Below are positions 16,583 through 37,452 of a stretch of 43,251 bases of DNA, piece by piece; position 1 is the stretch's first letter, and each line of letters starts with the position of its first letter. A model generated the notes under the pieces. It saw only the letters and a program-made list of their open reading frames with translations. It searched no databases and was not told the origin of the DNA. The DNA comes from Folioceros fuciformis (Eukaryota): the NCBI GenBank assembly GCA_049999805.1, contig JBNGIO010006264.1:52834-96084 (forward strand), read 5' to 3'. Position numbers and translations under genes: made by a program.

Positions 16583-17718
16583 TCACACTTGATTCTCATC
16601 TCGTAGGAGGACTGTGGACATCTTCTCCTTCCTCACCTTCTTCGGATGCTTCCAGCAATTTGCAAGCTCAACAATGCTCTTTTTCCGTTTCAAACTATCG
16701 TAAAGACCATTGTCCATTTTGTTGAGCTGAACAGAATTCAAGGTTTGTGCTCCACATAATTGGGCTTCTACTTGTCGTAGCTTACATAACAGAATGTTGG
16801 CTCCAGCATATGCATGTTGAAGCAAAGAAGGACTTATAGATTGTACAAGATCCTGCAGTGCTTGAATTGTATACTCCCAATCTTTGTATGAGCATTTTTG
16901 TAGCATAGCTTGAGGGTTGCTAGAAGCTTGCACCCCTCGGACACATGATGTGTCCTCTCCTACATGACAAGGTTTAGTGTTTGTTGAAGTATTGTTACAT
17001 ACAAGTGTAAGAAGGAGCTCCCGAGTTGGATGCAATTGCCCTTTCATTTGTAATACCTTTGTTTGGTGTTTGCAGAAAAAGCCTTGCATTCCTCTTGGAC
17101 AATTGCAGCATGCCTAGTCCCCTACAGGATTGCAAACAGTGTATATCAACCTTTTATCTGTGTAGCTTTACACAAGAGCTGGTTCTTGATCGTCAGTAGG
17201 AAGTGTAACGTGGTCCTCAGGTATAGAAAAGGAGTCCCTCATTGCATTTTTGATAATCACCTCTTGCTTTCCATTGTGCTTGAAGCCATGTCGTTTTGTA
17301 AAGTGCTTGTGCCAATACACTTTGCATACTGTATCCGTTAGTGTATGGAGCAACCAATCCATACGCCGACCTCGAAGACACATAAAATCATGGCTCAACA
17401 TGGACTTTAAGAAGCCATGTCAAGCTTCAATTGATGAATTGCAGTCCTGGCCAGCATGTGGCATGGTCCTGGAATACTTTAGCCACATAGGTAGCACCCC
17501 CTCTCACTGATTCTTGAAGTGCTGAATGAACTCTGGAGCTTCTCTTTCATAATCCACGTATAATTGTTGTAGCATCTTCCTAGCCTCAGCTTCTGTGTGC
17601 CAATGACGAGAAACATACATAATGTCACCAAGACGACTAAAGGTTGCCACTCTTCTCTTCCACTACCTAACCTTAAGCAAAAGGTGTCGTAGCCAACATT
17701 TTCTAACATGCCATAAAC
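16583..17718 (-). pseudogene. MULE transposase, C-terminal part with SWIM zinc finger; several stop codons
   Basis: Reads (CL)WHVRKCWLRH...HAGQDCNSSIEA*HGFLK...RRMDWLLHTL...CNCPRGMQGFFCKH and is in frame with the N-terminal part across the copia A TSD. Confidence 0.85.
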
Positions 17719-17915
17719 TGTTGAATAGTTAATTAAAAGTTAACTTACATTGCTATTGTGCTTAGGGTTAGAACTTCATGTAGTTAGGTTAAGTTGACGG
17801 TTGTAACTACCTATGCTATTTTAGAGACTCGGGCAAGACCCAGATATTATTCTTTCCTTTTTTTCAATTCTATTCTTCCTTGATGTGCATATAGAACACA
17901 TTTAATAAGAGAACA
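17719..17915 (+). repeat. Copia A 5' LTR
   Basis: TGTTGAATAG...GAGAACA; 8 substitutions relative to 31999-32195 by manual comparison. Confidence 0.95.
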
Positions 17916-17928
17916 TGGTATCAGAGCC
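17916..17928 (+). promoter_or_regulatory. Primer-binding site, initiator tRNA-Met (copia A)
   Basis: TGGTATCAGAGCC immediately after the LTR. Confidence 0.95.
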
Positions 17929-18054
17929 ATATCTGATCTGTGTCTTTCTGTCTTCATTTTTTATTCAAAACTTCATACAATTGAAGTTCTTGAAAAATGA
18001 ATTATATTCATTTTTACAAAATGCAGAATAGACGCAGATTTTTTTAGCGGACGC

Positions 18055-18573
18055 ATGATGCCGAGAAAAGGCATCAGCAGGCAGAATTGGCCATCTGCCC
18101 ATAGACATGGAAAGGCGCAGCAGGTCCCTATTTCTGAATTACAGGATTTTGGGGCACAATTTGAAAGATTATATTTCAAAAACGTTCTATCTTCGGCGGA
18201 GCAACAGGAGAGAACCAGGTTCTTGAAGACTTTTCTTAAATCTTACGGTGCCAATCAGACGGAGGTATATCCATCTGCTAAATCAGGCCTGCAGATTCAG
18301 ACAGAGTCGTCAAATTATACACAACAATCATCTGGAATCTTTAGATGTTGCAAACCCTATTTGCTACACGATGAGCATAAACAATCAGACCTGAATCAAC
18401 GTGACGCTCTCCTCAGCTCTTTGCTGAATGTGAAGTCTTCACTTCTGGAGACTTCTAGACGTGTAGATATCTTGGCTACACGCTTGGAGCGCTTGGAGAA
18501 ACAGCATGCGTTGGAGCAGATTTCAGCAGTTGGTCTGGAACTGGAAGTCAAGAAACATGCTGTAGATCATTAG
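18055..18573 (+). CDS. Extra 172-aa ORF in the copia A leader, upstream of gag; function unknown
   Basis: Open frame between PBS and gag with a coiled-coil-like C-terminus (LLETSRRVDILATRLERLEKQHALE); no family recognised. Confidence 0.3.
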   Translation: MMPRKGISRQNWPSAHRHGKAQQVPISELQDFGAQFERLYFKNVLSSAEQQERTRFLKTFLKSYGANQTEVYPSAKSGLQIQTESSNYTQQSSGIFRCCKPYLLHDEHKQSDLNQRDALLSSLLNVKSSLLETSRRVDILATRLERLEKQHALEQISAVGLELEVKKHAVDH

Positions 18574-18634
18574 CCTTAGAGAGCAACTTGCTAATCTAAG
18601 GCCCTCAACTTCTTAGTAAAGTAAGTCAGACACT

Positions 18635-21600
18635 ATGGCGGCAGACCAATCCTCTGACCGCTTGCAGGAGAAGGATCGACTTACTTCTCATAAGTTTGAT
18701 GCTTGGTCGTTTAGGGTTGGGTGCATTCTTGAGGAAAAACTTCTGATGGATGTCACTGATCCTAAGAGGGTGGCTGGTCAGCCATCTGGCACATTGACAC
18801 CAGGTGGTGTCAATTATGTGCCTTGAACTCAAAAGGATGCAATGGAATGGAATCACAAAGATAGAAAAGCAAAAACCACATTGGTTGGATCTGTTTCACA
18901 GGAGATGATTCCTCGCATAAAGTTGGCCAAGCATGCTCACGGTGTCTGGACTTTGCTGAATGATATGTATGAAGCAAAGGATATGATCTCAGTTGGAACA
19001 GCCACTGTTCATGGGCAAAATCTGCGCATGAGAGAAAATGAGTCAATTGAGGGCTTTGTTGCCAAGTTTAGGGCAGCAACAGCCAGACTTGCTGCATGTG
19101 GAGTTCTCATTGACGATAGTCGAGTTGCTGTTCAGTTTTTGTTAGCCCTTCCTCCAAGCTGTGAAACTTGGAGTTCGAGTATTCAAGCAACAGCACCTGT
19201 TACCCCAGCAACTACGTCCCTAACTGTTCAGAAGTTAGTTGGAGCCCTGCTGCAAGCAGAAGCCAACAGAAAATACATGAACAGCAAGGGTTCTTCAAGC
19301 TCTTCACATAAGCAAAGTGATACTGCTTTATGGTCAAGTCACGGTAGAGGTCGTGGCAGAGGAAGAGGACGTGGACGAGGAAGTTTGGTAGAGGTAGAGG
19401 ACAAACGTCTAGGCCTGACCCTAACTTCAGTTCACAACAGTCAGTGAAGAAAACTGGAGTGTGCAACTACTGTCACAAGCCAGGGCACTGGGCAAGAGAT
19501 TGCAGACTCAAGCAAAGAGATGATGTTGGAAAAGGAAAACAACACGAAATAAATGTGACAAGAGCAACAACACCTAGTTTACTTGCGTCTTGTCTCTCCT
19601 CAGTTACAACTAGTAAGAACCAGTGGTTCTTAGATAGTGGGGCTTCTAACCACATGTGTTCTTCTAAGAAGTCTTTTCTCAACAACAGAGAGGCTCCGAG
19701 TGAGCATACTGTTGTTCTGGGAGATAATTCCCACATTCCTATTAGAGGGATAGGAACAGTTGTCATTACCCTGCAAAATGGCAAGACTTGGGAGTTAGAA
19801 AATGTGTTGCATGTTCTAGCATTGAAGAAACATCTCGTGAGTACTATGGCTTTGGGAAAGATAGGCCTGTACAGAGTCCTGTTTGAGGGCCTTGAGTGTG
19901 TCATAACCAAAACAAACACACCCACAAATGTCATTGCTAGATGCACCCCCTTCTATGACCTGTACATACTCGATTTTGTTTCAGATGTCCCTCCACAGTC
20001 TGTACAATTAACAGAGAAGGGAGTTAGTAAGTCTTCCCTTGCATTTAAATGGCACTGCAGGTTGGGACATCCAAACATTCAAGCTGTGAGACATTTGCTC
20101 AAAGAAAAGATGGTGACAGGTTTCTCTGAGTCCGACTTACCGGATCTAGATCTTTGTCTTGCTTGTGTGCATGGCAAACAGTTTAAATCTCATTTTGGAT
20201 CTGGTAAGCCTAGAAGACAAATGCAAGTGCTGGATTTAGTGCATACTGACATCTGTGGTCCGATGTCTACACCAAGTTGGGGAGGAGCCAGATACTTTGT
20301 GGAGTTTGAGGATGATCGTACCCATTTCACTGTCACTGAGCTGTTGAAACATAAGAGTGATGTCTTTGACAGTTTTAAAAGATACCTGGCATATGTCGAA
20401 CGTCAAACAGGTTTTCAGTTGAAATGTATCCGTTCGGATAATGGGAAGAATACCTATCACATGTGTTTCAGGAGTTTTGTCAGGAACGTGGCATTAGTAG
20501 ACAGCTTACAATTCCATACCACTCAAATATGAATGGCAGAGCAGAACAAAGACACAAGACAATTTAGGATGCTGCTCGAGCTCTTTTGTTCCAGGGGAGG
20601 TTACCTATTCGCTTCTGGGCTGAAGCTGTTCAGGCGGCAACCTATTTGCAGAATCGTACTTCTGTGTCTTCTCTTCTGAAATGCATGCCCTTTGAGTTAT
20701 AGACAGGTGTCAAGCCTAATGTTGCACATCTTCGAGTATTTGGAAGTACAGCCTACGCCCATATCCCAGACAAGCTTAGACAAAAGTTTGCATTTAAGTC
20801 TAGACGACATGTGTTTATAGGTTACACACTTGGGATACACGGATATAAACTTTTTGAGCCTGTCTCCAGACGTGTTGTCCATGCTCGGACAGTTGCTTTC
20901 GATGAACAAGTTGTGCTGAACCCTCCTGATGATTCACCTCCTGTAGAGGCTGAGTTAGCTCCAGCACTTGATCAGTTTGATGTGTTCGAACCAGAGTTTT
21001 TCGATATTGTTGACTTCCCTCTGTTAATCCTGATCCTCCCGTTCAGCCATCCTCCACATCTGATCCAGTAGCTCCTGTTCTTTTAGATCCTTTAGATGCT
21101 GAGTCGGAAGACCACCTAACTGATACTCAGTCTCAACCTGAGCCAAAGCCAAGTCTGGAGCCCGAGCTTGGTGTTGATGATCCTGTTGAATATACTCTTC
21201 CTGTCCCTGAACCTCCTGTCCCTGTTCCTCGACGTTCCACCCGTCTTCATTGTGGACGTGACCAGAGGCTGGAGACGCCCTATCAGGCTAAAGACTGGAG
21301 GGCTCAGCGACCCTTGGTTCCACCTCTCCCTCAGCCAGTGGGAGCTGCTCTTGAACCTGAATCTGTTCATGAGCTTGTCCAGTTGACTGTGCAGCCAGGT
21401 TATGAACCACATTCTTATCAAGAAGCTATCACTGGTCCTGCATCTCAACACTAGAAAGCTGCTATTACCTCCGAGTATGAATCCCTTCTTCACACTCACA
21501 CTTGGGAGCTTTGTCCCCCGCCTAAGGGGAGGAAGATCATCAGCAGCAAGTGGGTTTTTAAACTCATGTACAAGGCTGATGGGACTATAGCGAGGTACAA

Positions 21601-22992
21601 AGCTCGCCTTGTTGCTAGAGGATTCTCTCAGGTGCCGGGGTTAGACTATCATGACACTTTCTCTCCGGTTGTCAAAGCACAGTCCCTACCTGTTCTATTC
21701 TCTATGTCAGCATTCTACAGTCTGTTTATCCATCAAATGGATGTTAAGACCGCGTTCTTACATGGAAAACTGAAAGAAGAAATTTATATGCAGCAGCCCG
21801 AAGGCTATGAAGAGAAGGGACATGAAGACTGGGTTTGTAAGTTGTTGAAAACAATCTACGGCCTCAAGCAATCTCCTAGGGCTTGGTATCAGTGTATTGA
21901 CGAGTTCTTACTTGAGCTTGGCTTCAGAAAGAGTGATGCTGATTTGAATGTATATTTCCTGCAAGATGACATAGGCTTTGTAGTGTTAGCATTATATGTG
22001 GACGACTGCATCCTACTCGGTACAAACCTTGAAGGCATAAACAAGGTGAAAGGGCTCTTATCTGGCAGGTTCGATATGGTTGATGTAGGAGAACTCTCAT
22101 ACTGTCTTGGTACACAACTCCTGCGAGATACATCAAGTGGCACCCTGGTTATTCACTAAGAGAAGTATATTCACGATATGCTGTTTAAGTATAAGTTGAC
22201 AGACTCTAAACCGGCCTCAACTCCAATAGAAGCAGGCAGCAGACTTACAGCTGTGCATTCTCCCATTACTGATTCTGAAAAACTGGAGATGGAAAGTGTA
22301 CCTTACTCTCAGGTTGTTGGATCACTTATATTCTGTTCAAATCAAACAAGGCCAGATATATCACTACTTGTTAGTATGACTTCCCAATTTCTAAAACAGC
22401 GTGGAAGGACTCACTGGACAGCAATGAAATGGATACTGAGGTACCTTAAAGGAACTAGCAGTCATGGCATACATTACACGAAGCAGCAGTACGAAGGTGA
22501 GTCACTTACCTTGCTAGGGTTTTGTGACGCTGATTGGGCAGCAAATCCAGACTCCAGGAAATCAATCTCGTCATATGCATTCTTGCTGGCTAGAGGAGCG
22601 GTTACCTGGTCATCTAAGAAACAGACCACAGTGTCATTGTCGTCCACAGAGTCAGAGTATTATGCTCTCACTCAAGCAGCCAAAGAAGCAATCTGGCTAC
22701 GAAGGCTTCTTAAGGACTTAGGGCAAGAGCAGAACAGCCCACGACAATCTATTGTGACAGTACTGGAGCTTTGTCACTCGCAGAAAATCCCGTATTCCAT
22801 GCGAGGACTAAACACATTGAAGTGCATCATCACTTCATTCGTGGAGCAATATCCTTAGGTCAGATACATTTGAAGTATGTCCCTACAGACTCAAACGCAG
22901 CAGACGTGTTAACAAAAGCACTACCTAAAGGTAAACATCATCAGCTTAAAGAAGCTTTAGGAGCCCTGGACTCCTCTTACCTTTCCAAGTAA
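18635..22992 (+). pseudogene. Copia A gag-pol polyprotein with frameshifts and stops
   Basis: Gag with RG repeat and CNYCHKPGHWARDC knuckle; protease WFLDSGASNH; WHCRLGH and LVHTDICGP/IRSDNG integrase; RT YKARLVARG, QMDVKTAFL, LYVDD; RNase H CDADWA, RTKHIEV. Confidence 0.95.
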
Positions 22993-23348
22993 AGAGAAAG
23001 GTAGACCCTTATTGTCACTATCATTGAGAGCAAGTCATGGACTAGACCTAGAAGGCCGCAGACACAGAGTCACTGTTAGAGTTAGAGCTACTACTAACTG
23101 TCATGTCAAAGAACACACTGTGTGTATCTACATTCAATCTTTCCCTCTGCAACTTTGAAGGTTTGGGGTCGAGGTTGGATCTTGTTGGCTTCACTTCTGT
23201 GTCATTCTCCTTTGCAGCTAGTCCGTGTCAGCTCCCTTGTACGTCATCTGGTGAATCTCTGTCAGGAGTTGATAAAACTGCAGTCAGGAAGTTAGTCTGG
23301 GTAGCATCCTCAAACCACAACAATAGTATGCGTAAGATCAGAGGCTAG

Positions 23349-23785
23349 CTAGGTAGACTTAAGGTAGAAAGAAATAAAATTTCCGTTGTCACCGCCCCAT
23401 CTGAACCAGTCTTCTCTTACCATCTCTATCCTAGTGAGAGTGCAAACATAAGCTTCAGGGGTAAGAGGGTTGTTGATCCCGTCACCGTCAATAACGAGTC
23501 GAACAGTCTTGCTCTTGTGCCCCCTAGGCAATGTGTAGGGTCTCGGGTTGTGTGGCACTGGCAGGACAACGTACTCGTCTTCAATCTGCGGAAGAAGCTT
23601 CACAGCGTTAAGAGGACCTACTGGTGAGAAGCAACTCCATTCAGAGGGAGCATGCGCCAAGTGAGTGGGAGCACGCGTCGAAGCGCCTGAGCCTATAGCT
23701 GGAGCACCAGAAGCCTGAAGGTGTTTTCGGAGAGCTGAGAGTTCTTGTGTGAGGAGAGCTTTTCGTTTTTTCATCTGCCGGAGCT
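23349..23785 (-). CDS. 3' half of copia A antisense ORF, split by element B
   Basis: Joins in frame to 31460-31787 once element B and one TSD are removed, giving 765 nt (254 aa) with junction ...AHWMKKLRQMKKRKALL... Confidence 0.6.
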
Positions 23786-23790
23786 TCTTC

Positions 23791-24066
23791 TGATGAAATG
23801 GGTCTAGATTAGGGCACTATTCATTAGGGCCTCGTAACTTTAAACATTATTATCCACCTAGGGTTTATTTAGGTAGTTAGTGGTTATATTACTTATATTA
23901 GTTGTAACCGCTTACGGTTGCAACTACTTACGGTTGCAACTACTTACGGTTGCAACAACTTATGGTTGCAACCGCCCAACCACCTAGCCTATTTAAAGGC
24001 TTGTACTTTACTCATTAATTGATTCCGTTGTTTTCTTTCCTATCTGAGAACTATTGATTCTCATCA
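23791..24066 (+). repeat. Copia B 5' LTR with four internal 16-bp repeats (CTTACGGTTGCAACTA)
   Basis: Direct repeat of 31200-31459; TATA-like CTATTTAAA. Confidence 0.95.
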
Positions 24067-24078
24067 TGGTATCAGAGC
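24067..24078 (+). promoter_or_regulatory. Primer-binding site, initiator tRNA-Met (copia B)
   Basis: TGGTATCAGAGC directly after the LTR. Confidence 0.95.
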
Positions 24079-24496
24079 ATCTTTGCTCTCTTGCGTATGC
24101 TTATGTTTCTTATATGTGAGGAGATTGTTTACAAGGCACTCTTAAATCTAGCATTTGTCAAAATGGAGCGCTATTGTCCTATATTCTCTATTTCACCAAT
24201 TCTTTATCTCTTCCTTTAACATGCTTATACTCTTGTTTTGTTAAATAAAAAATAGAATTCAAACTCCATCTCTTCATGATTTTTATGATCAATTTTCATC
24301 TCTCAAAATTCAGGTCTCTAATCTACAAACTGAATTATTTGATTTGAAATCAAAATTTTCTTTGATTAATACTAATCGAGAATTAGAGAGTAGGCCATCT
24401 TCTCCTGAAAACAGCCTAATGGATGAATTCTATATGTGCAATAAAATTGAACATAAGCCTTACCGCCACAACTTTGTCCTTTGAGGACGATTAGCA

Positions 24497-27400
24497 ATGG
24501 CTGGAGTGATTGAAGAAAAATTTGAAGCTACCCCAAACTCACCTATGGGTAATGATAATGTTCATCCTCCTACACATTATTATTTTGATGATGGTTTCAA
24601 AGAGAAAGATAGATTCAACGGGAAAGATTATGATATTTGGGCATTACGTATGCGAGGAGCATTGAGACAAAGAGCATTATGGGGCATTGTTGATGGATCC
24701 ATAACGAGACCAAGGTCTGATGATGAACGTGAACTTTAGATTTCCTGGGACGCCAGGGATGAGAAGGCACAAGATTTGTTAATAAGTTGACTCTCTCAAC
24801 AAATGGTCAGGCATGTTGCACATGCAAAAACATCTCATGAAATGTGGTCTCACCTTGCTCAATTATATTCATCACAAGATGTAATGAGCATTGTGGCAGC
24901 TTCTCGTAACTTCCGTAATTTATCCATGAAGGAGTCCGACACTATTGAACATCATATTAATGCTTTTAGACAAGCATGCTCCCAAGTTGAATCTGCAACT
25001 GGTGTACCTATATCTGAGATGGAAGCTTATGTAACCCTTCTATCTTCATTGCCTCCCTCCTATCGTCCATTCATCACTCCTCAAAACGCAGTTATTCGTA
25101 ATTCACGGAGAACTGCAGATGATGGGACAAAGGGTTTTGACATAAGTGTTTCTGAATTGATCGGAGCACTGCTACAGGAGGAGGCAAGTAGGCACCATTC
25201 TCACTCCAGGCTTAATAAACAACAAGTAATGTACTTGCAGAGAGGCAGAGGAAGAGGACGAGGCAGAGGCCAAGGTTTTTCTTCCCAACGTCCTCCATAT
25301 TCTTCGCCGAGTACCAACATTGGAGAGAGTTCTTCATCCACACCTTCAAAGGATAAAAAGAAGAGCGGCATTATATGCAATTGGTGCAGGATTTCTAATC
25401 ATACAGAAAAGGATTGTCGCAAAAAGAAGAATGGTGAACCTTGCAAGGAGGCTTCACAAGGAGTTAATGTAGCTTCCAAAATGCAATCTTCATCAACTCC
25501 AACAGTGCTCACTGTATGTTTGGCATCATCCAAACCTGCTAATACCTCATGGTAATTAGACAGTGGAGCAACATCACATATATGTTACAACAAAAGTTAT
25601 TTTCAGTCATACTCACCAACCACAGGACATCAATCTATCCTCTTGGGAGATGATCACAACCTACCTATTGAAGGTACTGGTTCTATTGTACTAACATGTG
25701 ATTCATGATAAGTCCTCCACCTCCACCAAGTTCTCCATGTTTCATCAATGTGCAAGAATTTATTATCAGTTGCAAGTATTTGTCAAACCCATTCCATGCA
25801 AGTGACCCTTTTTACAGATAGTTGCTTTCTCTCTCATGTAGGTGATAGCAATCATATCATTTGTAGTGGTACTTTAGAAGATGGCCTTTATAAATTGTCT
25901 GTTCTAGTAGGAGGTCAACAATATGCTCATGTCGCCAGTTCTTCGCCTCAAAGTCCCTCTCCCACAATGTTATGGCATTGTCGTCTTGGTCATCCAAATA
26001 GTCAAAAATTAGTACAGATGTCTAAGGCAGGAAATTTATATCGCACACCCTGCCTCTCTCACATTCAACACCTCTCATGGTGTGAGACTTGTGTCATCTC
26101 CCCACAGAGGGCGAAATGTCCTCTAGAGCTTGTTCATATAGATATTTGTTGCCCTATCTCTACACCTTCTTTCAGTGGTAGCAGATATTTTATGACCTTC
26201 ATTGACGACTACTCTCGGTTTACCCTTATCTATATCTTAAGTCATAAAGGAGATGTTTATCGTTACTTCCAAGACTATATGGTATGGGCTGAGAGGTTAA
26301 CCGAAAAGAAACTCAAAACCTTACGTTCTGATAATGGTGGCAAGTTCACTTCCAATCAATTTACGGATTTTTGTCGCCTTCACGGTATTGCTCAACAACT
26401 TACTGTTGTTTATACTCCACAACAAAATGGCGTAGCTGAAAATAAGAATCTACGTCTTCAAGAGATTACTGGCTACCTGTTAAACCAAGCAAATTTACCT
26501 AAGGTATACTGAGCCGAAGCACTCCTCACAGCCACATATCTCATGAATCGACTGCCCACTTCAGCAGTCCAAGATATGACACCTTATGAAGCCTTTATAG
26601 GTAGAAAGCCCTCCATAGAACACCTCCGCATTTTTGGATTTCCGGCATATGTATTTGTCCCCAAGGCATTAAGAAGGAAGTTCGACCCAAAGGCCGTAAA
26701 ATATACCTTTATTGGTTATTCGGAAGGAATCAAGGGTTATAAATTGTTTGATCCTTCTACTAAGAGGCTTCTCTATGCTCGCAGCGTCACTTTTCATGAA
26801 CATTCCCTATTTTCATCTTCAGTGGGAAATGTTTTGCCTCCTTACCTTTCATCTAAAGATATAGAATCTGAATGTTCTTCCTTTGATGCTAGTGACTATA
26901 TTGTGGATTTTCCTGATCTCGCTCTTCGACTTCCCTTCGATAGACCTGTCATGCAGGAGGAGGAATTAGGACCTAAACTGCGTTCTGACACACCCACAAC
27001 CGACACCAACACCGACACACCGGAGGAGGAGGAGCAATTTTCACATTCATCTGATCCCCTTGAGGCCATTTCGGAAAATGCAGTACCTCCTGTTCAAGAA
27101 GACAATGATCAGTTGGAAGCTGATGATGTTGAAGAAATGGACCCTTTAGAACATGAAGATGAACTAGTTCCTGTGGAAGATACACCTGCACCAAGGTACA
27201 ACCTTAGATCACGTCCACTCATCTCNNNNNNNNNNNNNNNNNNNNNNNNNNNNNNNNNNNNNNNNNNNNNNNNNNNNNNNNNNNNNNNNNNNNNNNNNNN
27301 NNNNNNNNNNNNNNNNNNNNNNNNNATCTTCGGCCCTGCTGGTTGGAAAGAACCTCCTTTGGGATATCTTGCTATTTTTCCTGATTCTAAATCTCCTGAG

Positions 27401-29137
27401 TCTCTTTATAATCAAGCTGTGTATGCAGCCACTATAGACTTAGAGGAGCCCCTTACCCTAAAACAAGCCTTCTCCTCTCCCTCCAAACATCTACGGAAGG
27501 TAGCCGTAGACTCAGAGTATAATTCCCTTATTAGTAATTCTACATGGAAATTAGTTGAACCTCCTAAGGGTAGAAAAATAGTAACCAGCAAATGGGTATT
27601 CAAGATAAAGAGAAAAGGAGATGGATCGGTGGAAAGGTATAAAGCACATCTAGTTGCTAGAGGTTTTACTCAAGTCCCTGGACTAGACTACATACCTTGG
27701 GCCACTTATGCTCCTGTAGCTAAGTTCGCTACTATTCATATAATCTTCGCTATATGCACCCAGTATGATCTTGAACTTCATATGATGGATGTGAAAACAG
27801 CATATTTGTATGGGCGCTTGAAAGAAGAAATATATATGAAGCAACCTAAGGGTTATGAGGTAAAAGGCAAGGAGCATTTAGTATGTAAACTTATTAAGGG
27901 TATATATGGACTCAAGCAATCCGGCAAAAATTGGAACTTGACTATCCATGTACAACTCTTGAACAAGGGATTTTAGCAAAGTAAAGGTGATGCTTGCTTA
28001 TATAGTTACCTTAAGAGAAATGATAGGGTCATATCATTTCCCTTAAAGTAACTATATAAGCAAGGGTCCAATGAAGGACCCTTGCTTATATAGTTTAGGG
28101 TTTAGGGTTTAGGGACCCAAGCAAGGACCCACTTTGCTAAAAGAAACCTTTTACTATACGTCGATGACGTTTTTATGGCAACAAACTCTCTCATTCTCCT
28201 AGATGAGATAAAAGCATGGCTTCGGACATTATATGAGATGACCAACCTAGGAGAAATGAATTATGCACTTGGAGTAAATATTATCCGTGACAGGAGTAAT
28301 AAAAAGTTGAGCATAGTTCAAACCAAGTACATAAAGGAGAGTTTAGCAAAGTTTGGAATGGAAGATGCAAAGCTTGCACCTACACCCTTTGCTAGTCGCA
28401 TCAGGCTTTCCTCCGATATGAGTCCTAAGAGGGCTCAACAGAAAATGGAAATGGCATCTGTCCCATATCGACATGCTGTTGGCACTCTTATATATTTATG
28501 CAATTTCACTAGACCTGATATTTCTTTTGAAGTTAGCTCCTGCTCACAGTTTTTGGAGAACCCTGGACACCAACATTGGATGTCAGTTAAGCGTATTTTT
28601 CGATACCTTAAAGGTACTATGCATACAGGGTTGACATTTAAGCATACACCAGCAATCAAAACATTAACACTTACGGCATATGCCGATGCTGATTATGCTG
28701 GTGATCCTGATACTCGAAAATCCGTACCAGGTTATGTTTTACTTCTTGGAGGAGCCCCAATATCATGGTCGAGTAAGAAACAGCCTACCATTGCCTTGTA
28801 TAGTACTGAATCTGAATATAGAGTACTAACATCTGTTTTCAAGGATATAGTATGGTCTAGGCTAGTTTTGAGTGAACTCAATCACCCTCAGCATAACCCA
28901 ACATCTCTTTTCAGTGATAGTCAGGGCGCCATAGCACTTGCTAGAAACCCTGTTCTTCATTCCAGAACCAAACATATAGCTGTTGAGTATCACTATATCA
29001 GAGAGAAATTGGAAGATAAGACCATAGATATCAGTTATATACCAACCCAAAACAACCCAGCTAATCTGTTAACTAAATCATTAGGGAGAGATTTGCATTT
29101 AAAACACATGAAAATGTTAGGCATTCAAGAGGTTTAA
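24497..29137 (+). pseudogene. Copia B gag-pol polyprotein with stops, a gap and an insertion
   Basis: FNGKDYDIWALRM gag start, RG repeat, degenerate knuckle, W*LDSGAT, WHCRLGH, LRSDNGG, TPQQNGVAE, MMDVKTAYL, LYVDD (about 28157), YADADYAG, RTKHIAV. Confidence 0.95.
27993..28146. repeat. Foldback insertion with (TTTAGGG)3 inside copia B reverse transcriptase
   Basis: 32-bp inverted repeat (27993-28024 and 28033-28064), a second hairpin to 28095, telomere repeats at 28094-28114, and an inverted copy of 27971-27982 at 28131-28142. Confidence 0.85.
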
Positions 29138-29332
29138 GTCAGCTAGCTAGCATGTGTAATTGTATTCCCTACAATCCACACATCTTATCTAGCATAGATA
29201 GTTCCTCTCCTAACTCTATATAGTCTTCACTGTACTCCTTATCCTCTCTCTCTAATGCCCAGAAGGATCCTACAATACACTCCATGGGTTATAAAGTGAA
29301 AATGATGAAAAGATAGTACTTAAGTCGTTAGG

Positions 29333-30322
29333 TTACTTACTGTACAAGTGTTTGGTGTGTCCTTCGTATTCTTCACATGGGGAAGCACCCAAACACATCA
29401 TTTTTATTCCTCTCTTTTCACATACATACTCCATGGGAACTTCAAGATCATCCTTTCCTCCAGGAAGAACCAAGTAGGTTGCCTTACATAAATTACCAGC
29501 TGGCAGGTAGGAACTAGGAATTTTCTTCTTTGCACTTGCTCTCTCTTGAGTAGGTCGTAGAGGTAGGGCAAATCTNNNNNNNNNNNNNNNNNNNNNNNNN
29601 NNNNNNNNNNNNNNNNNNNNNNNNNNNNNNNNNNNNNNNNNNNNNNNNNNNNNNNNNNNNNNNNNNNNNNNNNNNCTTCTTTGCTCTCCTGTTGTTGCCA
29701 CTATAACATCCTCTATTTGGTGATCTGCACAAGGATGTGACCTCCAGCTTGGGCTACCATCACAAACAACCTGCTAGGGGGTCTCTTCTTGTTTTATGGA
29801 GTCTTCTGACTCTTTTGAATCTTCATTTATTTTGAAGTCATCATATTCGGCCTTAGTTGGCGGTGCTGGCTTCATCGGATTATCTACATCCACATTTATT
29901 AGCATTTTGTGCAATCAAAATTTTTATACAATTTATCTTGCAATTCATTGACTTACCAGTCACTTTGACTTCTCTCACAACGACCTCGGATTTTTTCATA
30001 AGCATTTGCACCACAAGACGTCATCATCCTCACCAGCTATGTCTTCACTCGTCGCAACAGGTTGACAACACCTTGCGAGAAATTCAGCACTGAAGTTAGG
30101 ATCATCTGGACCTTTCTCAGTACCTAGTATTGGTGCTGCTGCCTCCCGGAACCACACGATGTTTGCACGGTTTGCCAGTTTCCTTTGCTCTTTTCTTCTG
30201 GCAAGTATTTTTCTCTTGGCCATGCGAACTGCTTGCTTAATTTTATTAACACCCATTTTCCGGCCTCATGGAGCTGGGGGGGCATGGAGCCTCCACTCGG
30301 CGTAAACTGCAGCATCAGCCAT
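29333..30322 (-). pseudogene. Decayed antisense gene in the 3' region of copia B, possibly with an intron
   Basis: MADAAVYAEWRLHAPPAP*GRKMGVNKIKQAVRMAKRK...; candidate GTAAGT...TGTAG intron 29956-29884; further ORF pieces down to 29333; interrupted by an N gap. Confidence 0.4.
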
Positions 30323-31190
30323 CTTTAGGTGTATTATACAGACCGGGAATTAAATATTAATATCAACTATTTTCAACAATTTATCAGAAATTGAGTTCAA
30401 AAAAAAAAAATCATCAGAATTTTCAGGCTGCAACACGTGCACCTGGAAATCAGAAAATTTCAGGTGACAACAAGTGCGTGTTTTTTTGGTTGGAACACCA
30501 CACAAATCTTTTGGCTGGATGGTGGCACACTGGGCTCGCTGGATTTCCGACAAAAATCTACAGGCTAGATCGCGACCAGGGCGCGCACTGGGCTAACCGG
30601 ATTGTAGGCTGGAACGCGCTCGCTGATGCGCGATTTCTGGTCTGGATTGCTGCATATCTGGGCAGAATTTTCAAGCTAATCTCAAACAATCTAAATCGCG
30701 GCTTGGGCGCGCGGCTGGCAGTCTTAAATGCGGGCTGGATGGCTGCGCGGCTGGCAAAATTGGTGGCGGCCTGAGGCGCGGCAGATCAGGGCGCACGGCA
30801 GGTTGGATGGATCGCGTTGCGGCGCTCCGGATTGTGGATGGAGCATAAAGCGGGAGGGGGGAGAAGGTGGTTTCTCCCCATTCACCTCCCCGTCCATTAA
30901 TTGCGGGGGGTGGGCGCGGCCCGGCAAACGGGCGCGCGTTCACAACGGGCATCCACGACGGGGCTGTCCGGGCCAACCGGCCCGTACCCGCTCCTGCAAC
31001 GGTACCGACTATATACAAAAAAAAAAAAAAAAACGAAGGAGGTTCTAACCTGTTGGACCTCCAACCTTTATATGAATGGACTAACCACTACACCAATGCA
31101 TTTTGGTCATAAATACATTGGTTTCGCCTGTACTAAACTTTGTATGAGCATAAGTACAAAGGCATTAGACTTCACCCCTATATTCATAGC

Positions 31191-31199
31191 GAGTGGGAG
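31191..31199 (+). promoter_or_regulatory. Polypurine tract (copia B)
   Basis: GAGTGGGAG immediately before the 3' LTR. Confidence 0.85.
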
Positions 31200-31459
31200 T
31201 GATGAAATGGGTCTACATTAGGGCACTATTCATTAGGGCCCCGTAACTTTAAACATTATTATCTACCTAGGGTTTATTTAGGTAGTTAGTGGTTATATTA
31301 GTTATATTAGTTGTAATCGCTTACGGTTGCAACTACTTATGGTTGCAACAATAAGTTGTTGCAACCGCCCAACCACCTAGCCTATTTAAAGGCTTGTACT
31401 TTACTCATTAATTGATTCCGTTTTTTTCTTTCCTATCTGAGAGCTATTGATTCTCATCA
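31200..31459 (+). repeat. Copia B 3' LTR
   Basis: Matches the 5' LTR except for about 7 substitutions, loss of one 16-bp unit and a microinversion. Confidence 0.95.
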
Positions 31460-31787
31460 TCTTCATCCAGTGAGCATCGGAGGGTGTTGCCTCATGCTTA
31501 ACCCGTCTCAGTCCACTCGTGGTGATGTCGTGACGAAGGCGAAGAGGAGCAGCATCTGGACGGTAGTCTGTGACAGCCTGTGCAGGAACATCGTCTTCGA
31601 CAGGAACATTTGCAGGAGGAGTGTCGCGAGGAGCCGCCATAGCTACAACAACAATAACGTGTTCAGAGACCTTAGACTTCTTTACAGCAGGCGGACTCAG
31701 ACTGATCTCGAAGTTGGAACCTGGCCCTGAAGCTGGCGACGCAACTAGCTGTCTTGAAGTCCCTAGCCCAGCACCATACCGTTCCAT
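31460..31787 (-). CDS. 5' half of copia A antisense ORF, split by element B
   Basis: MERYGAG...MAAPRDTPPANVPVEDD...AHWMK continues in frame at 23785 across the TSD. Confidence 0.6.
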
Positions 31788-31989
31788 CTAGTTGAGCTCT
31801 TGGAGCCTGCAGCAGAAGACAGCGTCTTGTATTCCTGAGCTGAGATTTGAAGCCAAAGATCTGACGCCGACATGCGCGAGTGGGAGTTGAAGTGTTGGTT
31901 TGCAACTCCTCGTGTTCGTACTGCGCTGGCGACCAATTAATTTCGGTTCGATTAATAAACACTTATAGAGTACCTAAGCACTTCGCAAT

Positions 31990-31998
31990 GAGTGGGAG
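31990..31998 (+). promoter_or_regulatory. Polypurine tract (copia A)
   Basis: GAGTGGGAG immediately before the 3' LTR; identical to the PPT of element B. Confidence 0.85.
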
Positions 31999-32195
31999 TG
32001 TTGAATAGTTAATTAAAAGTTAACTTACATTGCTATTGTGCTTAGGGTTAGAACTTCAGGTAGTTAGGTTAAGTTGACGATTATAACTACCTATGCTATT
32101 TTAGAGACTCGGACAAGACCCAGATACTAATCTTTCCTTTTTTTCAATTCTATTCTTCCTTGATGTGCATATAGAACACATTTAATATGTGAACA
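31999..32195 (+). repeat. Copia A 3' LTR
   Basis: Direct repeat of 17719-17915, followed by TSD TAAAC. Confidence 0.95.
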
Positions 32196-33389
32196 TAAAC
32201 ATAGCAAGATTGGCATAGCCTCCCCCCATATGGCTCGTAGAGCACCTATTTCAGCAGCAGCATCATCCACAAAGAAAGCACTGGGTTGCCATAGTGGACT
32301 GTGATGCCGTATATGCATTTGAAATGCATACAACCATGCCCGGATATCCTCCAGTTTACCACTGTCCGTGATAATCCAAGCAGCATGGACTCCACTATAG
32401 TAATTATCAAAGACCAACAAGGTGTACAAGTGGAACTTGTACTTATTGGTACCAAAAGTGGCCTCAAGGGAGATCACATTATTATTTTCAAATTGAAGCA
32501 TCATAGACCTTTGCACCCCTAGTGTGAAGGGGTCCTGAATTGGAATGGTACCATACGATGTTATTGTGATGTTATGTTATTCTGTCCACATCTAAACACT
32601 TACCTCATCATTCGGATGATACTGGTAAAAGCTTGTGGTAACAGTTGATGCAATGTTATCAATGTCATGAGGTTGAAGGAATTCATCACGATAGGGTTCA
32701 TAACTAGATGCCTGTGCTTTCAGATCCAGTCTTTGAACGTGCTCTAAATAGATATGTCTTTTAGTGGCTCCTGCAAAAAGTCTGTGTTGGACCCATGTCC
32801 GTATCTCACTACACAAATGAGCAGCAAACCTTGCCTGTGGGTTTGCATTGTACTGAGAGCCATGACAAATTTCACCAGAGTTGTCAATGTGTTGGTTATG
32901 GACAATAAACATTGCTGCAAGATGAGGCCAACAAGCAAGCTGCTTAACATCAAAGTGGTGTTGACAACCATGCTTCACACTAGAGAGTCTTAATATCTTG
33001 CCTTTGCGTTTCCCTGTGCTTTGAGATGCCTGTATAGCTAGCTCGTTGCTACGAAAATGTGTTCCTCCAAAGGCACACCAATACTTGGTGTGCCTAAGCC
33101 AAGACCACATGTTTTGTCTATGTACAACGTTAGTTTCCCTTGCTTTTCTGTCAATTTCTTTCTAGAACTAGGTAGGAAATGAGTGGTCCATACTATCTCC
33201 GTGGAGCAAGTCCTCCACTCTATCCCACCGAATGATGGTGACATTCGTACATTTTCTTTCAAGCAACACTTGTCTGCCGATGACAACAAAAGATAATGTC
33301 AAATCAAGAACTCTGAAAGGACCTTGCGGTGGTTCTTGTACCTCCCACCCAATTGGCCGATCAAGACCAACTATTGCTTCTATACTCAT
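32196..33389 (-). pseudogene. MULE transposase, N-terminal part; stops present
   Basis: YWCAFGG...KHGCQHHFDVKQL...HIDNSGEICHG; ISLEATFGTNKYKFHLYTLLVFD...AAWII...FFVDDAAAEIGAL...LLCL, i.e. the MULE domain up to the CxxH motif. Confidence 0.85.
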
Positions 33390-33529: not shown

Positions 33530-34580
33530 TGCATAATGTAAGTGGAATATAGAGCCTAATAGTGTTCATGGCGTCGTGATCCATTCATCCAAAAAATTAT
33601 GTCGCCCGCAGGCTTAACTACGATGCTTGGATGGATGCATGTTCGTAAGGCCACCACTAGCATGCATCCCATATGCCGGTGGTAACAAAAAACCGGAATA
33701 TGAGTGGCGGGGCTCACGTATGAAGACACGCTTGCATTAATAACTTGACGAGTTTTAGGAATCGGAGAAATGTAAGGGGTGATGCTTAACAAAGGCCTAA
33801 AAGATATAGACCGTTCGCACATATAACAAGTCAGACGCCACTAATGGTGCCCCGCACGATCCGCTTCGTCTCCGTCCGGTACCCGCTATACGCGGAACGT
33901 TTACGGACGGAGGCCAATCTCAATGTGAGTAGCCCTTGAGAATGTCCTGATGGGTACATGCTATCCCTCGACTCGGTCTGCCCATGTTTGGTTTTTCCCT
34001 ATTCTGCAGCCTGAAACAGTTGCATTGCAGCTGAACTAGGATCCTTAGATCCAATTATCTGTTGTGTGAAGGCAAACGCAGCCTTTTGTCATAACATCCC
34101 CACTTGGTGAAAACACCCAGCTTAAAATTAAGTTGGAGAGCAGTTCAAGGGCCATTTGAAGGAACGGGGGTTGCACAGCAAATAATCACGCCACGCTAAA
34201 ACCAGGGAAGCTGGGGATCGTAGCAGAAATGCTTTCATGTACTCTATCTCTATGCCAGGACACTTGTGTAGCCAGGGAACATTGTGACCCGCACGATATG
34301 CTCGCAGGAGCTTCTTCAAGGGAATTTGATCAGTCACTCAAGCTTCTAGGACAACAAGCGTGAGATGCTGAATTTAGAACTGCCGGTTATTTTGGGCGCC
34401 GCATAGAACGGGTGGTTCTCGCAGCTACGAAGAGACTGAATCACCTTGTCGTTCTCCATGGATAGTGGCCGAAAGTTGAGAACAGGTCCTCAGTGACGGT
34501 CTTGTCACAGCTTGATGCCTTCTTTGGAGAGGGCGGGCTGGGAAACACTGCGAAGTTGACGATTGCATCACGAAGCTTAT

Positions 34581-36359
34581 CTACTGCTGAGCCTTGCGAG
34601 CAGTGAACATGATGAAGCTCTCCCTAGTAATTTCTCTGTATTCTTGTAGCCCACAAAGCCTGCACAGATCAGCTAGTTCCGATTTCTCCCAGTAGTGTAG
34701 GGGGATATTGAAGCCGACCTGTCCGAACACCTGCAAACAACGACTTGGATGAAACAAAAAGGGTTTGGTGGGTGTGGGGCAACTCCAGAGTGCACATTCT
34801 GGAAAGGTTACCCCTGAGATTGCTTGGCGGACAGGTTTGAAAAAAAATTGTGGGATTGTGAAGGTAGAAGCCACGAAAACACCACCCGGACGCAGAACCC
34901 TGCTAATCTCAGCTACCTGGAAGTACGTGATGCAGTTTGTTAGAAAACGAAGCCCATAAGATGAAAGAACCCACCACGATAGTTCTCCATCAACCTCTTC
35001 GTACTACTTCCTGGTATAGAAGGACATGGAGTATCTGCTGGCAAATATGGGAGACGGCATGCACGTACCGCAGTGGAGGGTGATCCCCAGCAGTGTATCG
35101 CAGCACCTGCATGGATTGCATCAACGCTACCAGTTGCAAATGGAAGCCGGCCCACATCGGCACGAACCAAGACAATGTCTCTGCGCAGAGAGGAGATAGG
35201 ACCAGTTTCAGTGATCAAACTCACTAACAATTCGGCTATCAGGCTCAGCAAGACTTACGCATCAGCAAGTGAGCTGTCTTGCTTCATGAATTCGGAGGTT
35301 TGGCGCAGCATGTTCTCTGAATAGTCCAAGGCTATCACAGTTTTGTACAGCCCACTTTGAGCGAACCTCCGAGTGAAGAGACCGCTCCCACAACTGACAT
35401 CCACAAGAACTCCCCCAAGTGCGGGCTGGAGGTATTCCTGAGCCATTTTGAACTGCAACATGAACAATAAAGTCCTGAGTAGGGACTAGCAATTGCAACA
35501 GTCCTTTGGACCATAGCATCTCCAGTACATACCTCTTCGTCAGGCCCTGGAAAACCTGCTGATCGAAAATTCTGTCTCCACCCTCTTTCATAGACATATG
35601 ACACCACGGGGCTCCTGCAAATCACTCACCGGAAAGTCAGACATCAGATGTAGACTGCTTACGAACAAAACCATTCTCTCGGATGAAAGATTAGAAGAAG
35701 GCAACCTGAAAAGTTCAGTTGCTTGCCACAAGGTCTCCTTGTACTCCTTGGCTCCATTCACAACCGTGAGGTCCAAGAAAACGTCCCGTGTCGAATATGC
35801 TTTCCTACATCGTGAACACTGAAACCCTGATCTCACCAGGGCTTTCCTGCAGAGAAGGCATCACCATTAATGACATGTCCTCCGCTTCCCCATCAAAAAT
35901 GGGATGAGGTTTGAGCCGAAACTATGCTCACTGCTTGTTCCCAGAAGGGCCTCCACGAATGAGAGGCTGGAAGCAAATTGGGCAGGCAAGCAGCTCCTCC
36001 TCGGCAGGTTTTTCATTCTCCGCGCCTGGAAACCTCTGATGGATCAAAGTCACGACATCTCGTGAGAAGGTGGCTATCAAACTGAACCTACGGCGGAAGC
36101 AAGGAATTCTCGTGCACTTTTTTGTCCTGTGGAGAGCAATTAATTGGAGGCGTACAGGCTCGGAGTCAAGCACAACTGCCGCTGCTACAGCACCCGAACT
36201 AGCTCTCAGTCTTGCTGCGGAGTAATTGCGTTGCGCCTGATGGGCCCGTCGTAGTTGCAAGCCTCCTCGCCTGTTGCCTCGTTTGCATTCAGAACCTGCA
36301 GGGTCGAAGGAACTGCGGAGTAAGCCCTCCACAGCAGCTGGAGACGCGAGAGCTGCCAT
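34581..36359 (-). CDS. SAM-dependent methyltransferase, At2g41040/At1g78140-like (UbiE-related, probably plastid-targeted), about 8 exons
   Basis: Transit-like MAALASPAAV...; LACPICFQPL, FQCSRCRKAY, TELFR|SPVVSYVYERGWRQNF..GFPGPDEE|F, VDVSCGSGLFTRRF, ALDYSENML, RADVGRLPF, HAGAAIHCW, EISRVLRPGGVFVAST; short GT-AG introns. Confidence 0.92.
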
Positions 36360-37452
36360 CTTCGAAAGCAACCAAGCTTCGCAGATGCTTTTGTTTCTTG
36401 GGTTTGAATTCCAACCAGAGGAAACGCTCGCTGAGGTGACCAGGTTGCTGGATCCCGCTACACATGTGGCCGCTGACTGGCTGAGCCAGGGCGGCAAGCC
36501 GTAAAAATCAGGTGGCAGGTCTGGCCCCACCGATCCACTCGTGGAGCGGTGCCATGCTTGATGTATTACATCCCATGGCATGTGCATAGGTGCACGGTCA
36601 GCATTTGTACAGGGAACCGGAGAAATAGAGCAACACGGCGCCGCGGTGTAAGCAAATCAAGATTTGAAATCAGAATTTCAGTACCTAAGCCCTAGTTCTA
36701 CGACCCGCCGGCAGAAACAACCGGTAGCCGGTCAAGCCATGCACCCGGTGCATGTACGATGGTCACATACGGCATGCTTGCAAGCACACGAGTTAAGGAC
36801 AGTGTCAGTGGAGCCCAGACCTGGCCACCTGATTTATACAGCTAACCATGAAGCTTATAGCCTGCGAGCATGCTCTTATAGATGTCTGCACAAATTGCAT
36901 TCGGCGGGTTGGAATCGGGTTCCACCCTTGCTGCGTTGGATCTCGTTTTCCATAAGTAGCCTCCTGAAGAAGCTCCTTGTTCCAACCACGACTCGGATTT
37001 CAGCAGGCAGGGCTCTCCGGTCCCTCCGAGGCGGAGCATCCCGGAGCGGTTGGCTGCTTGGGCAACTGATGTCCCAGCTGGCTTTCACTTTGTCCAGACA
37101 AAATCTGTGCGAGCATGAAACTCTGGTAATCCACCTCAGAAACTTTAACGTTAAGCCATTGTGTGAGCTTGTGACAACCACCTCAAAGAGCAGCAACCAC
37201 AGAGGAATCACGCTGTGAGTCGCGATGGTGATGAGAATCCCGCCTACTCCATGGATCGTGAAATTCTCCACGTCTGCCCATGGTCGTCTGATTTCTGGCT
37301 CTACCTTGGAGCAGGCTCGGGGAACATGTGAGCAAGTAATCTGGGTTTGGGTAGAAATCAGATGGGCATCGTTACCGTGTTGTTCTCGGCAATGAGGGCT
37401 GAAAGGCGTGAGAAAGTGCGCAGCCATGGCTGCCTAGAAGCCGGCGCATTAT

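Follow-up and report, generated by a model that had tools for sequence, protein, structure and literature searches.

An antisense open reading frame of 254 codons, split by a nested insertion, between pol and the 3' LTR of a Ty1/copia retrotransposon of Folioceros fuciformis

A Ty1/copia retrotransposon of Folioceros fuciformis, here called copia A, carried an antisense open reading frame (ORF) of 254 codons between its pol gene and its 3' LTR before a second element, copia B, inserted into this frame and split it in two. The antisense frame is too long for chance. Constraint at the protein level is further suggested for about the last 60 codons: at the corresponding position, the sister element B has retained a comparable open antisense frame, with a near-equal distance between the matching block and the stop codon. 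We conclude that the ORF is probably a lineage-specific extra ORF of a copia clade, which is dead in the present copy: B splits it, and A and B are both old, with an LTR identity of about 96%. The stretch of DNA analyzed, referred to below as the window, comprises 43,251 nt of contig JBNGIO010006264.1 (positions 52,834-96,084 of the forward strand; assembly GCA_049999805.1), and all coordinates are those of this window.

Copia A spans positions 17719-32195, with B nested inside it, and inspection of its flanks revealed the target site duplication (TSD) TAAAC on the left (17714-17718) and on the right (32196-32200). Its 5' LTR (17719-17915, + strand, 197 nt, TG...CA) and its 3' LTR (31999-32195, + strand) are identical at 189 of 197 bases (95.9%, gapped alignment). 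Directly after the 5' LTR lies a PBS-like TGGTATCAGAGC (17916-17927, + strand), presumably a match to the initiator tRNA-Met, and a PPT-like purine-rich tract (31987-31998, + strand) immediately precedes the 3' LTR. In the decayed gag-pol (18001-22992, + strand), Pfam matches follow the order gag, zinc knuckle, Pol_BBD, pre-integrase, RVT_2, and RNase H, and the last pol frame terminates at 22992, which leaves a post-pol region of 1,332 nt. The presence of Retrotran_gag_2, zf-CCHC, Pol_BBD, and gag_pre-integrs upstream of RVT_2, together with the TG...CA LTR pair and a 5-bp TSD, places A among the Ty1/copia elements. Its reverse transcriptase (RT) is at most 55% identical to any sequence found.

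Copia B occupies positions 23791-31459 on the + strand, has TG...CA ends, and is flanked by the TSD TCTTC (23786-23790 and 31460-31464; flanks inspected). Its LTRs (23791-24067, 277 nt, and 31200-31459, 260 nt, both + strand) are identical at 250 of 260 aligned bases (96.2%, gapped alignment). Ungapped repeat figures had made the inner LTRs of B appear more diverged than the outer LTRs of A, but this age paradox was gone with gapped alignment (96.2% vs 95.9%). A and B came out as sisters (SH-aLRT 86) in a quick tree of RT sequences with 81 rows, separate from 79 metagenome copia loci; the RTs of the two are only 44% identical. This sister relationship makes an ancestral ORF common to both elements plausible.

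The N-terminal piece of the antisense ORF lies at 31787-31460 (- strand; 328 nt, that is, 109 codons plus 1 nt). It begins with an ATG at 31787-31785, immediately preceded by an in-frame TAG, and is rich in A, P, S, and G. The C-terminal piece, at 23785-23349 (- strand; 437 nt, that is, 2 nt, 144 codons, and a TAG at 23351-23349), encodes a basic helix followed by the conserved block at 23546-23418. Neither piece contains a stop codon, and their phases of 1 and 2 nt add up to one split codon; the frame is therefore continuous over 254 codons plus the stop once B and one copy of the TSD are removed. Coordinates, phases, and the TCTTC flanks thus confirmed what the initial annotation had described, namely the nested anatomy, the stop-free pieces of 328 and 437 nt, their exact join at the TSD, and the antisense position, and they establish that the 254-codon frame was present in A before the insertion of B. 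With the pol stop at 22992 and the PPT at 31987-31998, the ORF lies wholly between pol and the PPT. This is the layout named aORF-3R or eORF-3'R, in which the frame is located between the end of pol and the 3' LTR on the strand opposite to gag-pol. The start codon is 211 nt from the 3' LTR of A, in line with the distance of about 210 bp given previously, and the spacer thus delimited (31788-31998, - strand) is the sole room for an internal antisense promoter. A TATA-like TATAAG at 31967-31962, 175-180 nt upstream of the ATG, is by its sequence a candidate promoter element.

In first-order Markov simulations, the longest open frame attained 254 codons or more in 4 of 20,000 runs for the post-pol region (counted in the simulation script from 22859, hence 1,466 nt) and in 6 of 300 runs for the whole window. 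Apart from the ORF frame, each of the five remaining frames of the two pieces, all three sense frames among them, has 3-13 stops. In 29 related copia loci, the longest antisense frame within the 1,332 nt after the pol stop had a median length of 79 codons. Just one of these loci reached 254 antisense codons, and that frame is a neighboring NLR host gene outside the element; the count of in-element frames of this size is 0/29. Long frames seen downstream of pol in two of the relatives were discarded, as one is an NLR gene (L055) and the other is the gag-pol of the next element (L005). It had also been pointed out that the ORF stays open although gag-pol carries many lesions. This is true, since the pol of A has at least three frame changes and 4-5 in-frame stops between 19396 and 22968, but it is not significant: at about two lesions per kb, a lesion-free stretch of 765 nt has a p of about 0.2. 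The codon-position composition and the codon-usage correlation of the ORF were not discriminating either, because T at position 1 is already lowered by the very choice of an open frame.

The case for constraint comes from B, whose post-pol region contains an open antisense frame at 29336-29575 (- strand), next to a placeholder gap at 29576-29675. Codons 29518-29396 of this frame match residues 80-122 of the C-terminal half of the A ORF, with 16 of 41 codons identical (39%) and 22 of 41 positive. The Smith-Waterman score of this block is 50, against a mean of 25.2 (sd 4.4) after shuffling, for an empirical p of 0.0004 (30,000 shuffles). Among the 18 same-strand pairs of A and B frames, only the two open frames match (z 6.2; runner-up 2.2), whereas alignment of the same stretches as DNA remains at chance level (z -0.8). 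The stop codon follows the block by 22 codons in A and by 20 codons in B. It should be noted that equally sensitive settings gave three chance hits as strong as this one in 461,601 nt, so that the match has a p of about 0.013 for the 2,062-nt target and does not amount to proof. The N-terminal half and the basic helix had no significant match in the antisense frames of B (p 0.11-0.69). Further weak hits in the window, at 15472-15570 and around 39-41 kb, do not fall in open frames and were set aside as noise.

The same type of search returned a stronger hit to the gag of a related locus (L052; 27.3 bits, E 0.049, Smith-Waterman z 7.8), and a gag origin of the ORF was therefore considered. This did not hold, as the hit proved to be due to chance when judged with a profile of the copia gag N-terminus built from 35 polyproteins: the C-terminal half of the ORF scored -2.2 bits, a value equaled or exceeded by 10.65% of 2,000 shuffles, while the gags of A and B scored 76.6 and 94.0 bits as controls. 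No tandem repeats were detected beneath the ORF with TRF. The antisense ORF is no tandem-repeat artefact, is not antisense to pol, and is not gag-like.

Other copies of the stretch were also sought. In X1, contig depth at 23433 summed to 218.6, compared with a depth of about 11 for the contig of the locus itself; the stretch coding for the C-terminus thus seems to be multi-copy, with the caveat that summed depth is not equal to copy number. In a related contig of 3,622 nt, an unaligned spacer of 285 nt is followed by renewed alignment at 23356, at most 5 nt from the ORF stop, and a single base, at 23433 within the conserved block, is deleted from a related multi-copy contig of depth 58.5. A joint across 23790/31460, as expected from a copy of A without B, was not present among the 15 joints listed of 102. 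A run presumed to be RNA (X4) gave four records, none of them on the ORF, which is no measure of its expression. The X3 run showed a large excess of C>T and G>A, so that its diverged contig at 31517-31724 could represent this very locus with converted bases. It was not counted as an additional copy, and the ORF itself is read from one interrupted copy.

The rival explanation that survives best is that the frame was never translated, lies open by chance in spacer DNA that is non-coding and decayed, and resembles B by coincidence. Such a frame would require two independent improbable facts to occur together, its length and a protein-only match in the sister element, with that match found at the same position, on the same strand, and at a matching distance from the stop; moreover, no in-element antisense frame of such size exists in the 29 related loci. 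Yet events with p = 0.0002 to 0.02 are met whenever very many windows are scanned, the A-B match reaches only a p of about 0.01, and the search that produced it also produced the stronger but false gag match. The deletion inside the block of the multi-copy relative, the lack of a homologue in any searched collection, and the low fold confidence (both described below) are likewise what a chance frame would predict. On balance, we consider this explanation rather unlikely.

Homologue searches covered protein, nucleotide, and structure collections. Pfam gave no family for the antisense ORF at E <= 0.01 and unrelated noise only at E <= 10, and the ORF had no match to PF04195 (Transposase_28, the family of the Retand/Tat TRP28 proteins). 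A phmmer search of 1.84 billion representative proteins with the C-terminal half or the A+B block returned no genuine relative; its two hits were both judged spurious, as they are tandem-repeat proteins matched in 8-9 stretches. Word-indexed protein searches yielded 37 candidates of near lengths, with 0 at E <= 0.01, and, when run with an alignment and at longer lengths, 257 candidates, with 0 at E <= 10. Pattern matches were confirmed neither in metagenome contigs (0/403) nor in genome contigs (none of 321 and none of 30) nor in viral contigs (0/15), and a search of the latter with the RT alignment gave 19 matches, 0 of which were confirmed. Relatives of the ORF were also missing among 80 related copia loci, the best E being 0.12 for a match of the N-terminal half in L026 that was rejected, as it does not fall within any open frame. 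In the ESM Atlas, there was no usable hit, and the recognition value of 2187 was below the level attained by 91 of 100 known-family proteins.

These searches bear on a second rival explanation, in which an ancestor of A captured the ORF from a host gene or a different mobile element, by transduction or an old nested insertion, and the ORF has a coding origin but no role in the element. Gene capture is indeed one source of extra ORFs according to the review text of PMC7264820, and the extra ORFs of LTR elements are described in the survey text of PMC6317226 as highly heterogeneous and seemingly acquired independently. The host lineage is also poorly sampled, with the RT of A no more than 55% identical to anything, and a parent host gene could therefore escape detection. 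However, no search returned a host-like or transposon-like homologue, the profile scores argue against derivation from gag, and the stretch seems to be multi-copy and not private to the present copy. A real match to B would make the sequence older than the split between A and B. A captured fragment is, in our view, quite improbable. A functional antisense RNA that regulates the element via double-stranded RNA or siRNA, with an incidental open frame, is very improbable: despite the TATA-like hexamer 175-180 nt upstream of the ATG and the antisense promoters or non-coding antisense RNAs reported for micropia, Ty1 RTL, AtRE1, and Mdoryco1-1 in the pertinent sections of PMC7264820 and PMC12786077, the transcript would not overlap gag-pol, and both the 254-codon stop-free frame and the similarity to B at the amino-acid but not the DNA level would be left unexplained.

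The predicted protein was modeled with AF2 without an alignment, each half separately (mean pLDDT 46 and 48). The N-terminal half has no secondary structure except for a short terminal helix at residues 102-107, while the model of the C-terminal half has a helix at residues 2-25 (pLDDT about 70) and low-confidence strands in the C-terminus. These models can check the structural description in the initial annotation only in part, and its "globular" C-terminus was not borne out (pLDDT 32-51).

Returning to a lineage-specific extra ORF as the preferred explanation, the ORF would represent an extra gene of a Ty1/copia clade placed antisense in the spacer that separates pol from the 3' LTR, in the layout of the gypsy aORF-3R (eORF-3'R). 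It would be transcribed from the 3' LTR or from an internal antisense promoter located within the 211-nt spacer. The protein made would be small, with a disordered N-terminus, then a basic helix that contains KKRK, and at the C-terminus a small domain rich in beta structure. The helix could serve in nuclear import and/or nucleic-acid binding, and the protein may act in the nucleus on the expression or integration of its own element, by analogy with what has been proposed for Grande gene23 and the Retand proteins. We infer such a function for a working accessory gene from these features, and the anti-silencing or nuclear-targeting role suggested earlier is conjecture. A more far-reaching version, which we offer tentatively and think somewhat doubtful, is that an antisense accessory gene, old and constrained at the protein level, lies between pol and the 3' LTR in a Ty1/copia clade that includes the A and B families, in a poorly sampled lineage of land plants. 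It would be the counterpart in copia of the gypsy aORF-3R and of retroviral HBZ-like genes, and it would encode a new fold with a basic nuclear-type helix.

If an antisense gene is conserved in copia, this layout would have originated or been maintained in both superfamilies. The ORF would then provide a small (254 aa), tractable protein for probing what antisense accessory genes do, and it would argue for annotating antisense frames in copia spacers, in non-seed or otherwise poorly sampled plants. Should it be a chance frame or a captured fragment, the locus amounts to nothing more unusual than two old copia elements, one nested in the other.

Among LTR retrotransposons, antisense accessory genes have been documented for gypsy elements of the Tat clade; the relevant passages of PMC7264820, PMC11963269, and PMC4093653 record antisense ORFs between pol and the 3' LTR for Grande, RIRE2, Retand, and PvRetro13. 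The extra ORF of SIRE is in forward orientation (PMC6317226 and PMC4093653, in the parts that treat it). The view that 3' antisense ORFs are mainly a gypsy feature, and that Sirevirus extra ORFs are sense, agrees with these passages of the four sources. As in the gypsy Tat aORF-3R (Grande gene23, RIRE2, Retand, PvRetro13), the ORF of A lies antisense between pol and the 3' LTR, has no cellular similarity, includes a basic region that hints at a nuclear or nucleic-acid-binding activity, and would need its own internal promoter (PMC7264820, PMC11963269, and PMC4093653, same passages). It differs from them in belonging to a Ty1/copia element and in its smaller size (254 aa), and it has no Transposase_28 or SMC-like domain. 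The post-pol region of A is also short, at 1,332 nt, compared with the 2,933-6,566 bp given for Retand in the text cited.

Extra ORFs of at least 250 codons were surveyed by Neumann et al. 2019 for REXdb, and the survey text reports them in 582 copia elements, divided into 45 similarity groups; 3' reverse is one of its orientation classes (PMC6317226). The ORF of A resembles these copia extra ORFs by the criteria of that survey: it has 254 codons, although only across the B insertion, lies outside the polyprotein region, and has no tandem-repeat array. As the survey has a 3' reverse class, at least in the text concerned, it is uncertain whether an antisense accessory ORF of copia is "undescribed", as had been proposed. 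Two differences from the REXdb ORFs are that the survey text, in the sections on copia, singles out only the forward SIRE ORF as lineage-characteristic (PMC6317226), and that the antisense ORF of A matches no protein in the searched collections. The env-like ORF of SIRE/Sirevirus is a sense frame (eORF-3'F; PMC6317226 and PMC4093653, passages on SIRE), whereas the ORF of A is antisense and much shorter. Both are additional copia ORFs downstream of pol. A further parallel is offered by HBZ of the deltaretrovirus HTLV-1, a bZIP protein, and by APH-2 of HTLV-2. The parallel, which is also drawn in sections of PMC7264820 and PMC11963269, is no more than an analogy, as the sequences are unrelated, and the ORF of A has only one short predicted basic helix. 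Like the ORF of A, HBZ and APH-2 are antisense; they are transcribed from the 3' end and are nuclear, with a basic region.

Removal of element B, a second copia nested in the Ty1/copia element A, together with one copy of its target site duplication (TSD), leaves a 254-codon frame on the minus strand, since both pieces lack stop codons and have compatible phases. The N-terminal half (31787-31460) comprises 109 codons plus 1 nt, its ATG immediately following a stop codon, and the C-terminal half (23785-23349) comprises 2 nt, 144 codons and a stop; the remaining five frames of each piece contain 3-13 stops. The initial annotation had described this hidden frame as antisense, located after pol and about 210 bp from the 3' LTR, and this description was confirmed: the frame lies wholly inside the 1,332 nt that separate the pol stop (22992) from the 3' LTR, with its ATG 211 nt from the LTR. 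No tandem repeats were found under it with TRF. AF2 models built without an alignment were of low confidence (mean pLDDT 46.4, C-half; 48.1, N-half), with a helix at residues 2-25 of the C-half (pLDDT ~70) and, in the N-half, no secondary structure except a short helix at the very end (residues 102-107).

Element A (17719-32195, plus strand) has 197-nt LTRs, the TSD TAAAC, a PBS-like TGGTATCAGAGC and a purine-rich tract preceding the 3' LTR, and its plus-strand gag-pol matches the Pfam families Retrotran_gag_2, zf-CCHC, Pol_BBD, gag_pre-integrs and RVT_2. Element B (23791-31459) has the same orientation and is flanked on both sides by TCTTC. The LTRs are 189/197 identical (95.9%) in A and 250/260 (96.2%, gapped alignment) in B, values equal within error, which suggests that little time passed between the insertion of A and that of B into it; the opposite age order, taken from an ungapped repeat listing (92%), was overturned by these gapped identities. 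Contigs from two DNA runs of one sample, X1 and X2 (depth 20.1 and 11.9), link 17705 to 32194 in the flanks of A with 5 letters between, the filled locus's own contig having depths of 10.9 and 8.5, respectively. This joint is an empty site without A and B, which could reflect a polymorphic insertion, a second haplotype or an empty paralogous locus. Runs of N occur at 1084-1183, 2252-2261, 27226-27325 and 29576-29675 (three of exactly 100, one of 10). Because contigs span 27207 to 27335 with 22 letters, at least the run at 27226-27325 is a placeholder of arbitrary length, and the frame of B across 29576-29675 is thus not fixed by the assembly.

The surrounding sequence is plant nuclear DNA. A minus-strand tandem pair of PLS-DYW pentatricopeptide (PPR) genes encoding E and DYW deaminase domains occupies 2039-10068. 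One copy is intact (7543-10020, 825 codons), and its broken partner, 77-91% similar to it, is split over at least three frames (2942-4072, 4073-4918 and 5214-6035). The 306-bp periodic repeats of the pair are P-L-S triplets, and a 33-bp tandem repeat (1955-2284, about 7 or more copies, 73-94% identical) lies just upstream of the broken gene. An isolated minus-strand frame at 11774-12181 matches the Neprosin domain (E 1.4e-13, profile positions 97-213 of 214) and probably represents either part of a gene or one exon. In the GC-rich stretch 34000-42000 (49-55% GC), both strands carry numerous overlapping open frames 120-240 codons long; Pfam gave no match in four frames scanned (35928-36656, 36652-37218, 38542-39204 and, just upstream of this stretch, 32592-33161).

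An open frame arising by chance is possible but unlikely. First-order Markov simulations produced frames of at least 254 codons in 4 of 20,000 cases for the post-pol region and 6 of 300 for the whole window. As a real-sequence control, we used 80 metagenome copia loci (RT 38-50% identical to that of A); the pol C-terminus was visible in 61, and 29 extended 1,332 nt past the pol stop. The longest antisense frame in these 29 had a median of 79 codons, reaching at least 150 in two and at least 254 in one. The latter was rejected as an in-element ORF, as it is a flanking NLR gene outside the element. Together, the simulations and the 29 loci make the frame of A unusual. The initial annotation had also stressed that it stays open while gag-pol has decayed; the openness is real, but the argument is weak, because the pol frame shifts at least 3 times and meets 4-5 in-frame stops within 3.6 kb (~2 per kb), a density at which 765 nt would escape with p ~0.2. 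Elsewhere in the control set, in locus L055 (2248-4578) a copia element and an oppositely oriented NB-ARC/LRR-type resistance-gene frame lie 205 nt apart, and L005 (2322-7133) has two copies of one copia family, head to tail.

A second line of evidence bearing on chance comes from B. Residues 80-122 of the C-half align with an open antisense frame of B (29518-29396), with 16/41 codons identical and 22/41 positive, differing codons being used at 10 of the 16 identical residues. The Smith-Waterman score of 50 exceeded the shuffle mean (25.2, sd 4.4), giving an empirical p of 0.0004 (30,000 shuffles) and a Gumbel p of 0.00036, with six pairs tried. When the 18 same-strand frame pairs of these stretches were compared, the pair of open antisense frames was the sole match (z 6.2; runner-up 2.2), and the DNA itself gave no alignment (z -0.8). 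The stop follows 22 codons after this block in A and 20 in B. Nucleotide identities by codon position (0.46/0.66/0.24), partly forced as the alignment was chosen on amino acids, are compatible with protein-level conservation. A quick-search RT tree that combined the two elements with 79 of the 80 loci (L039, with short coverage, left out) places A and B as sisters (SH-aLRT 86), so an ancestral ORF confined to their clade is reasonable, and the 39% identity of the block is within the range of their pol domains (RT 44%, RNase H 45-46%, integrase 32%). The same sensitive tblastn settings returned 3 matches of at least 23.1 bits in 461,601 nt of the 80 loci, so a match of this strength in the 2,062-nt post-pol region of B (29138-31199) has p ~0.013. 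The best of these (L052, 27.3 bits, SW z 7.8) coincided with the gag of another copia. A relation to gag was rejected, as a gag N-terminal profile built from 35 polyproteins scored the frame at -2.2 bits (10.65% of 2,000 shuffles as good) and the gags of A and B at 76.6 and 94.0 bits; persuasive-looking matches of such size can therefore be false.

The region 17600-32300 was compared at 80% likeness with contigs from three DNA runs of this sample, covering 40 of the 3,427 variant sites. At position 23433, summed contig depth in X1 was 218.6, whereas the error-free contig of the locus itself had 10.9; the C-terminal coding stretch thus seems to be multi-copy, although summed depth does not equal copy number. 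The alignment of a related 3,622-nt contig (depth 58.5, ~79% identical in pol) breaks off past 23070 and resumes at 23356, at most 5 nt from the ORF stop, which fits the conservation expected of coding sequence. Against conservation of the last 28 codons, this contig has a 1-base deletion at 23433, inside the block. In the third run, X3, C>T (624) and G>A (596) changes far outnumber all other kinds (14-142 each), a pattern suggestive of a base-conversion (methylation) library made from the same sample, so its diverged contigs are not to be read as other copies.

No relative was found by word-indexed protein searches or by scans of metagenomes, genomes and viral contigs, and no Pfam family matched. 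An exhaustive phmmer search of 1.84 billion representative proteins gave only two matches, both tandem-repeat proteins taken as spurious (8-9 stretches matched by one short query segment). These blanks are weak evidence, as the RT of A is at most 55% identical to anything found and the host lineage is poorly represented. A captured fragment is improbable: the searches yielded no source, and, if the match to B is real, the stretch is older than the divergence of A and B. An antisense RNA with an incidental open frame is the least probable explanation; a TATAAG at 31967-31962, in the spacer upstream of the ATG, is compatible with it, and the match to B, seen in the amino acids and not in the DNA, speaks against it.

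The reading judged most likely, at an even chance, is that the frame is an extra ORF of the aORF-3R kind, antisense and restricted to this lineage, and that it is dead in this copy. An antisense transcript might start in the spacer, which holds this TATAAG, or in the 3' LTR. The predicted product is a small protein, disordered at the N-terminus, in which a basic KKRK helix is followed by a small C-terminal domain; it could have a nuclear role in the cycle of the element itself. The proposal of an undescribed, functional copia accessory protein is partly supported, by the frame length and one similarity of p ~0.01, and is weakened by the lack of relatives in the collections searched.

As far as the text of PMC7264820, PMC11963269 and PMC4093653 goes, antisense ORFs between pol and the 3' LTR are described only in gypsy elements, and all 15 common bean families with an antisense ORF2 are gypsy, the only two copia families there that carry an extra ORF having a sense, env-like one. 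In PMC6317226, 582 copia elements are reported to carry additional ORFs that span 250 codons or more (45 groups); its orientation classes include 3' reverse, and its main text singles out only the forward ORF of SIRE. The earlier statement that 3' antisense ORFs are known mainly from gypsy elements and that Sirevirus extra ORFs are sense agrees with these four sources as far as their text goes. A full-text literature search returned no title or abstract describing an antisense ORF in a copia element, and the supplements of PMC6317226 may already list such cases. The frame of A shares its position between pol and the 3' LTR, and its orientation, with the gypsy antisense ORFs, but its host element is a copia; it may thus represent a new version of a known layout.
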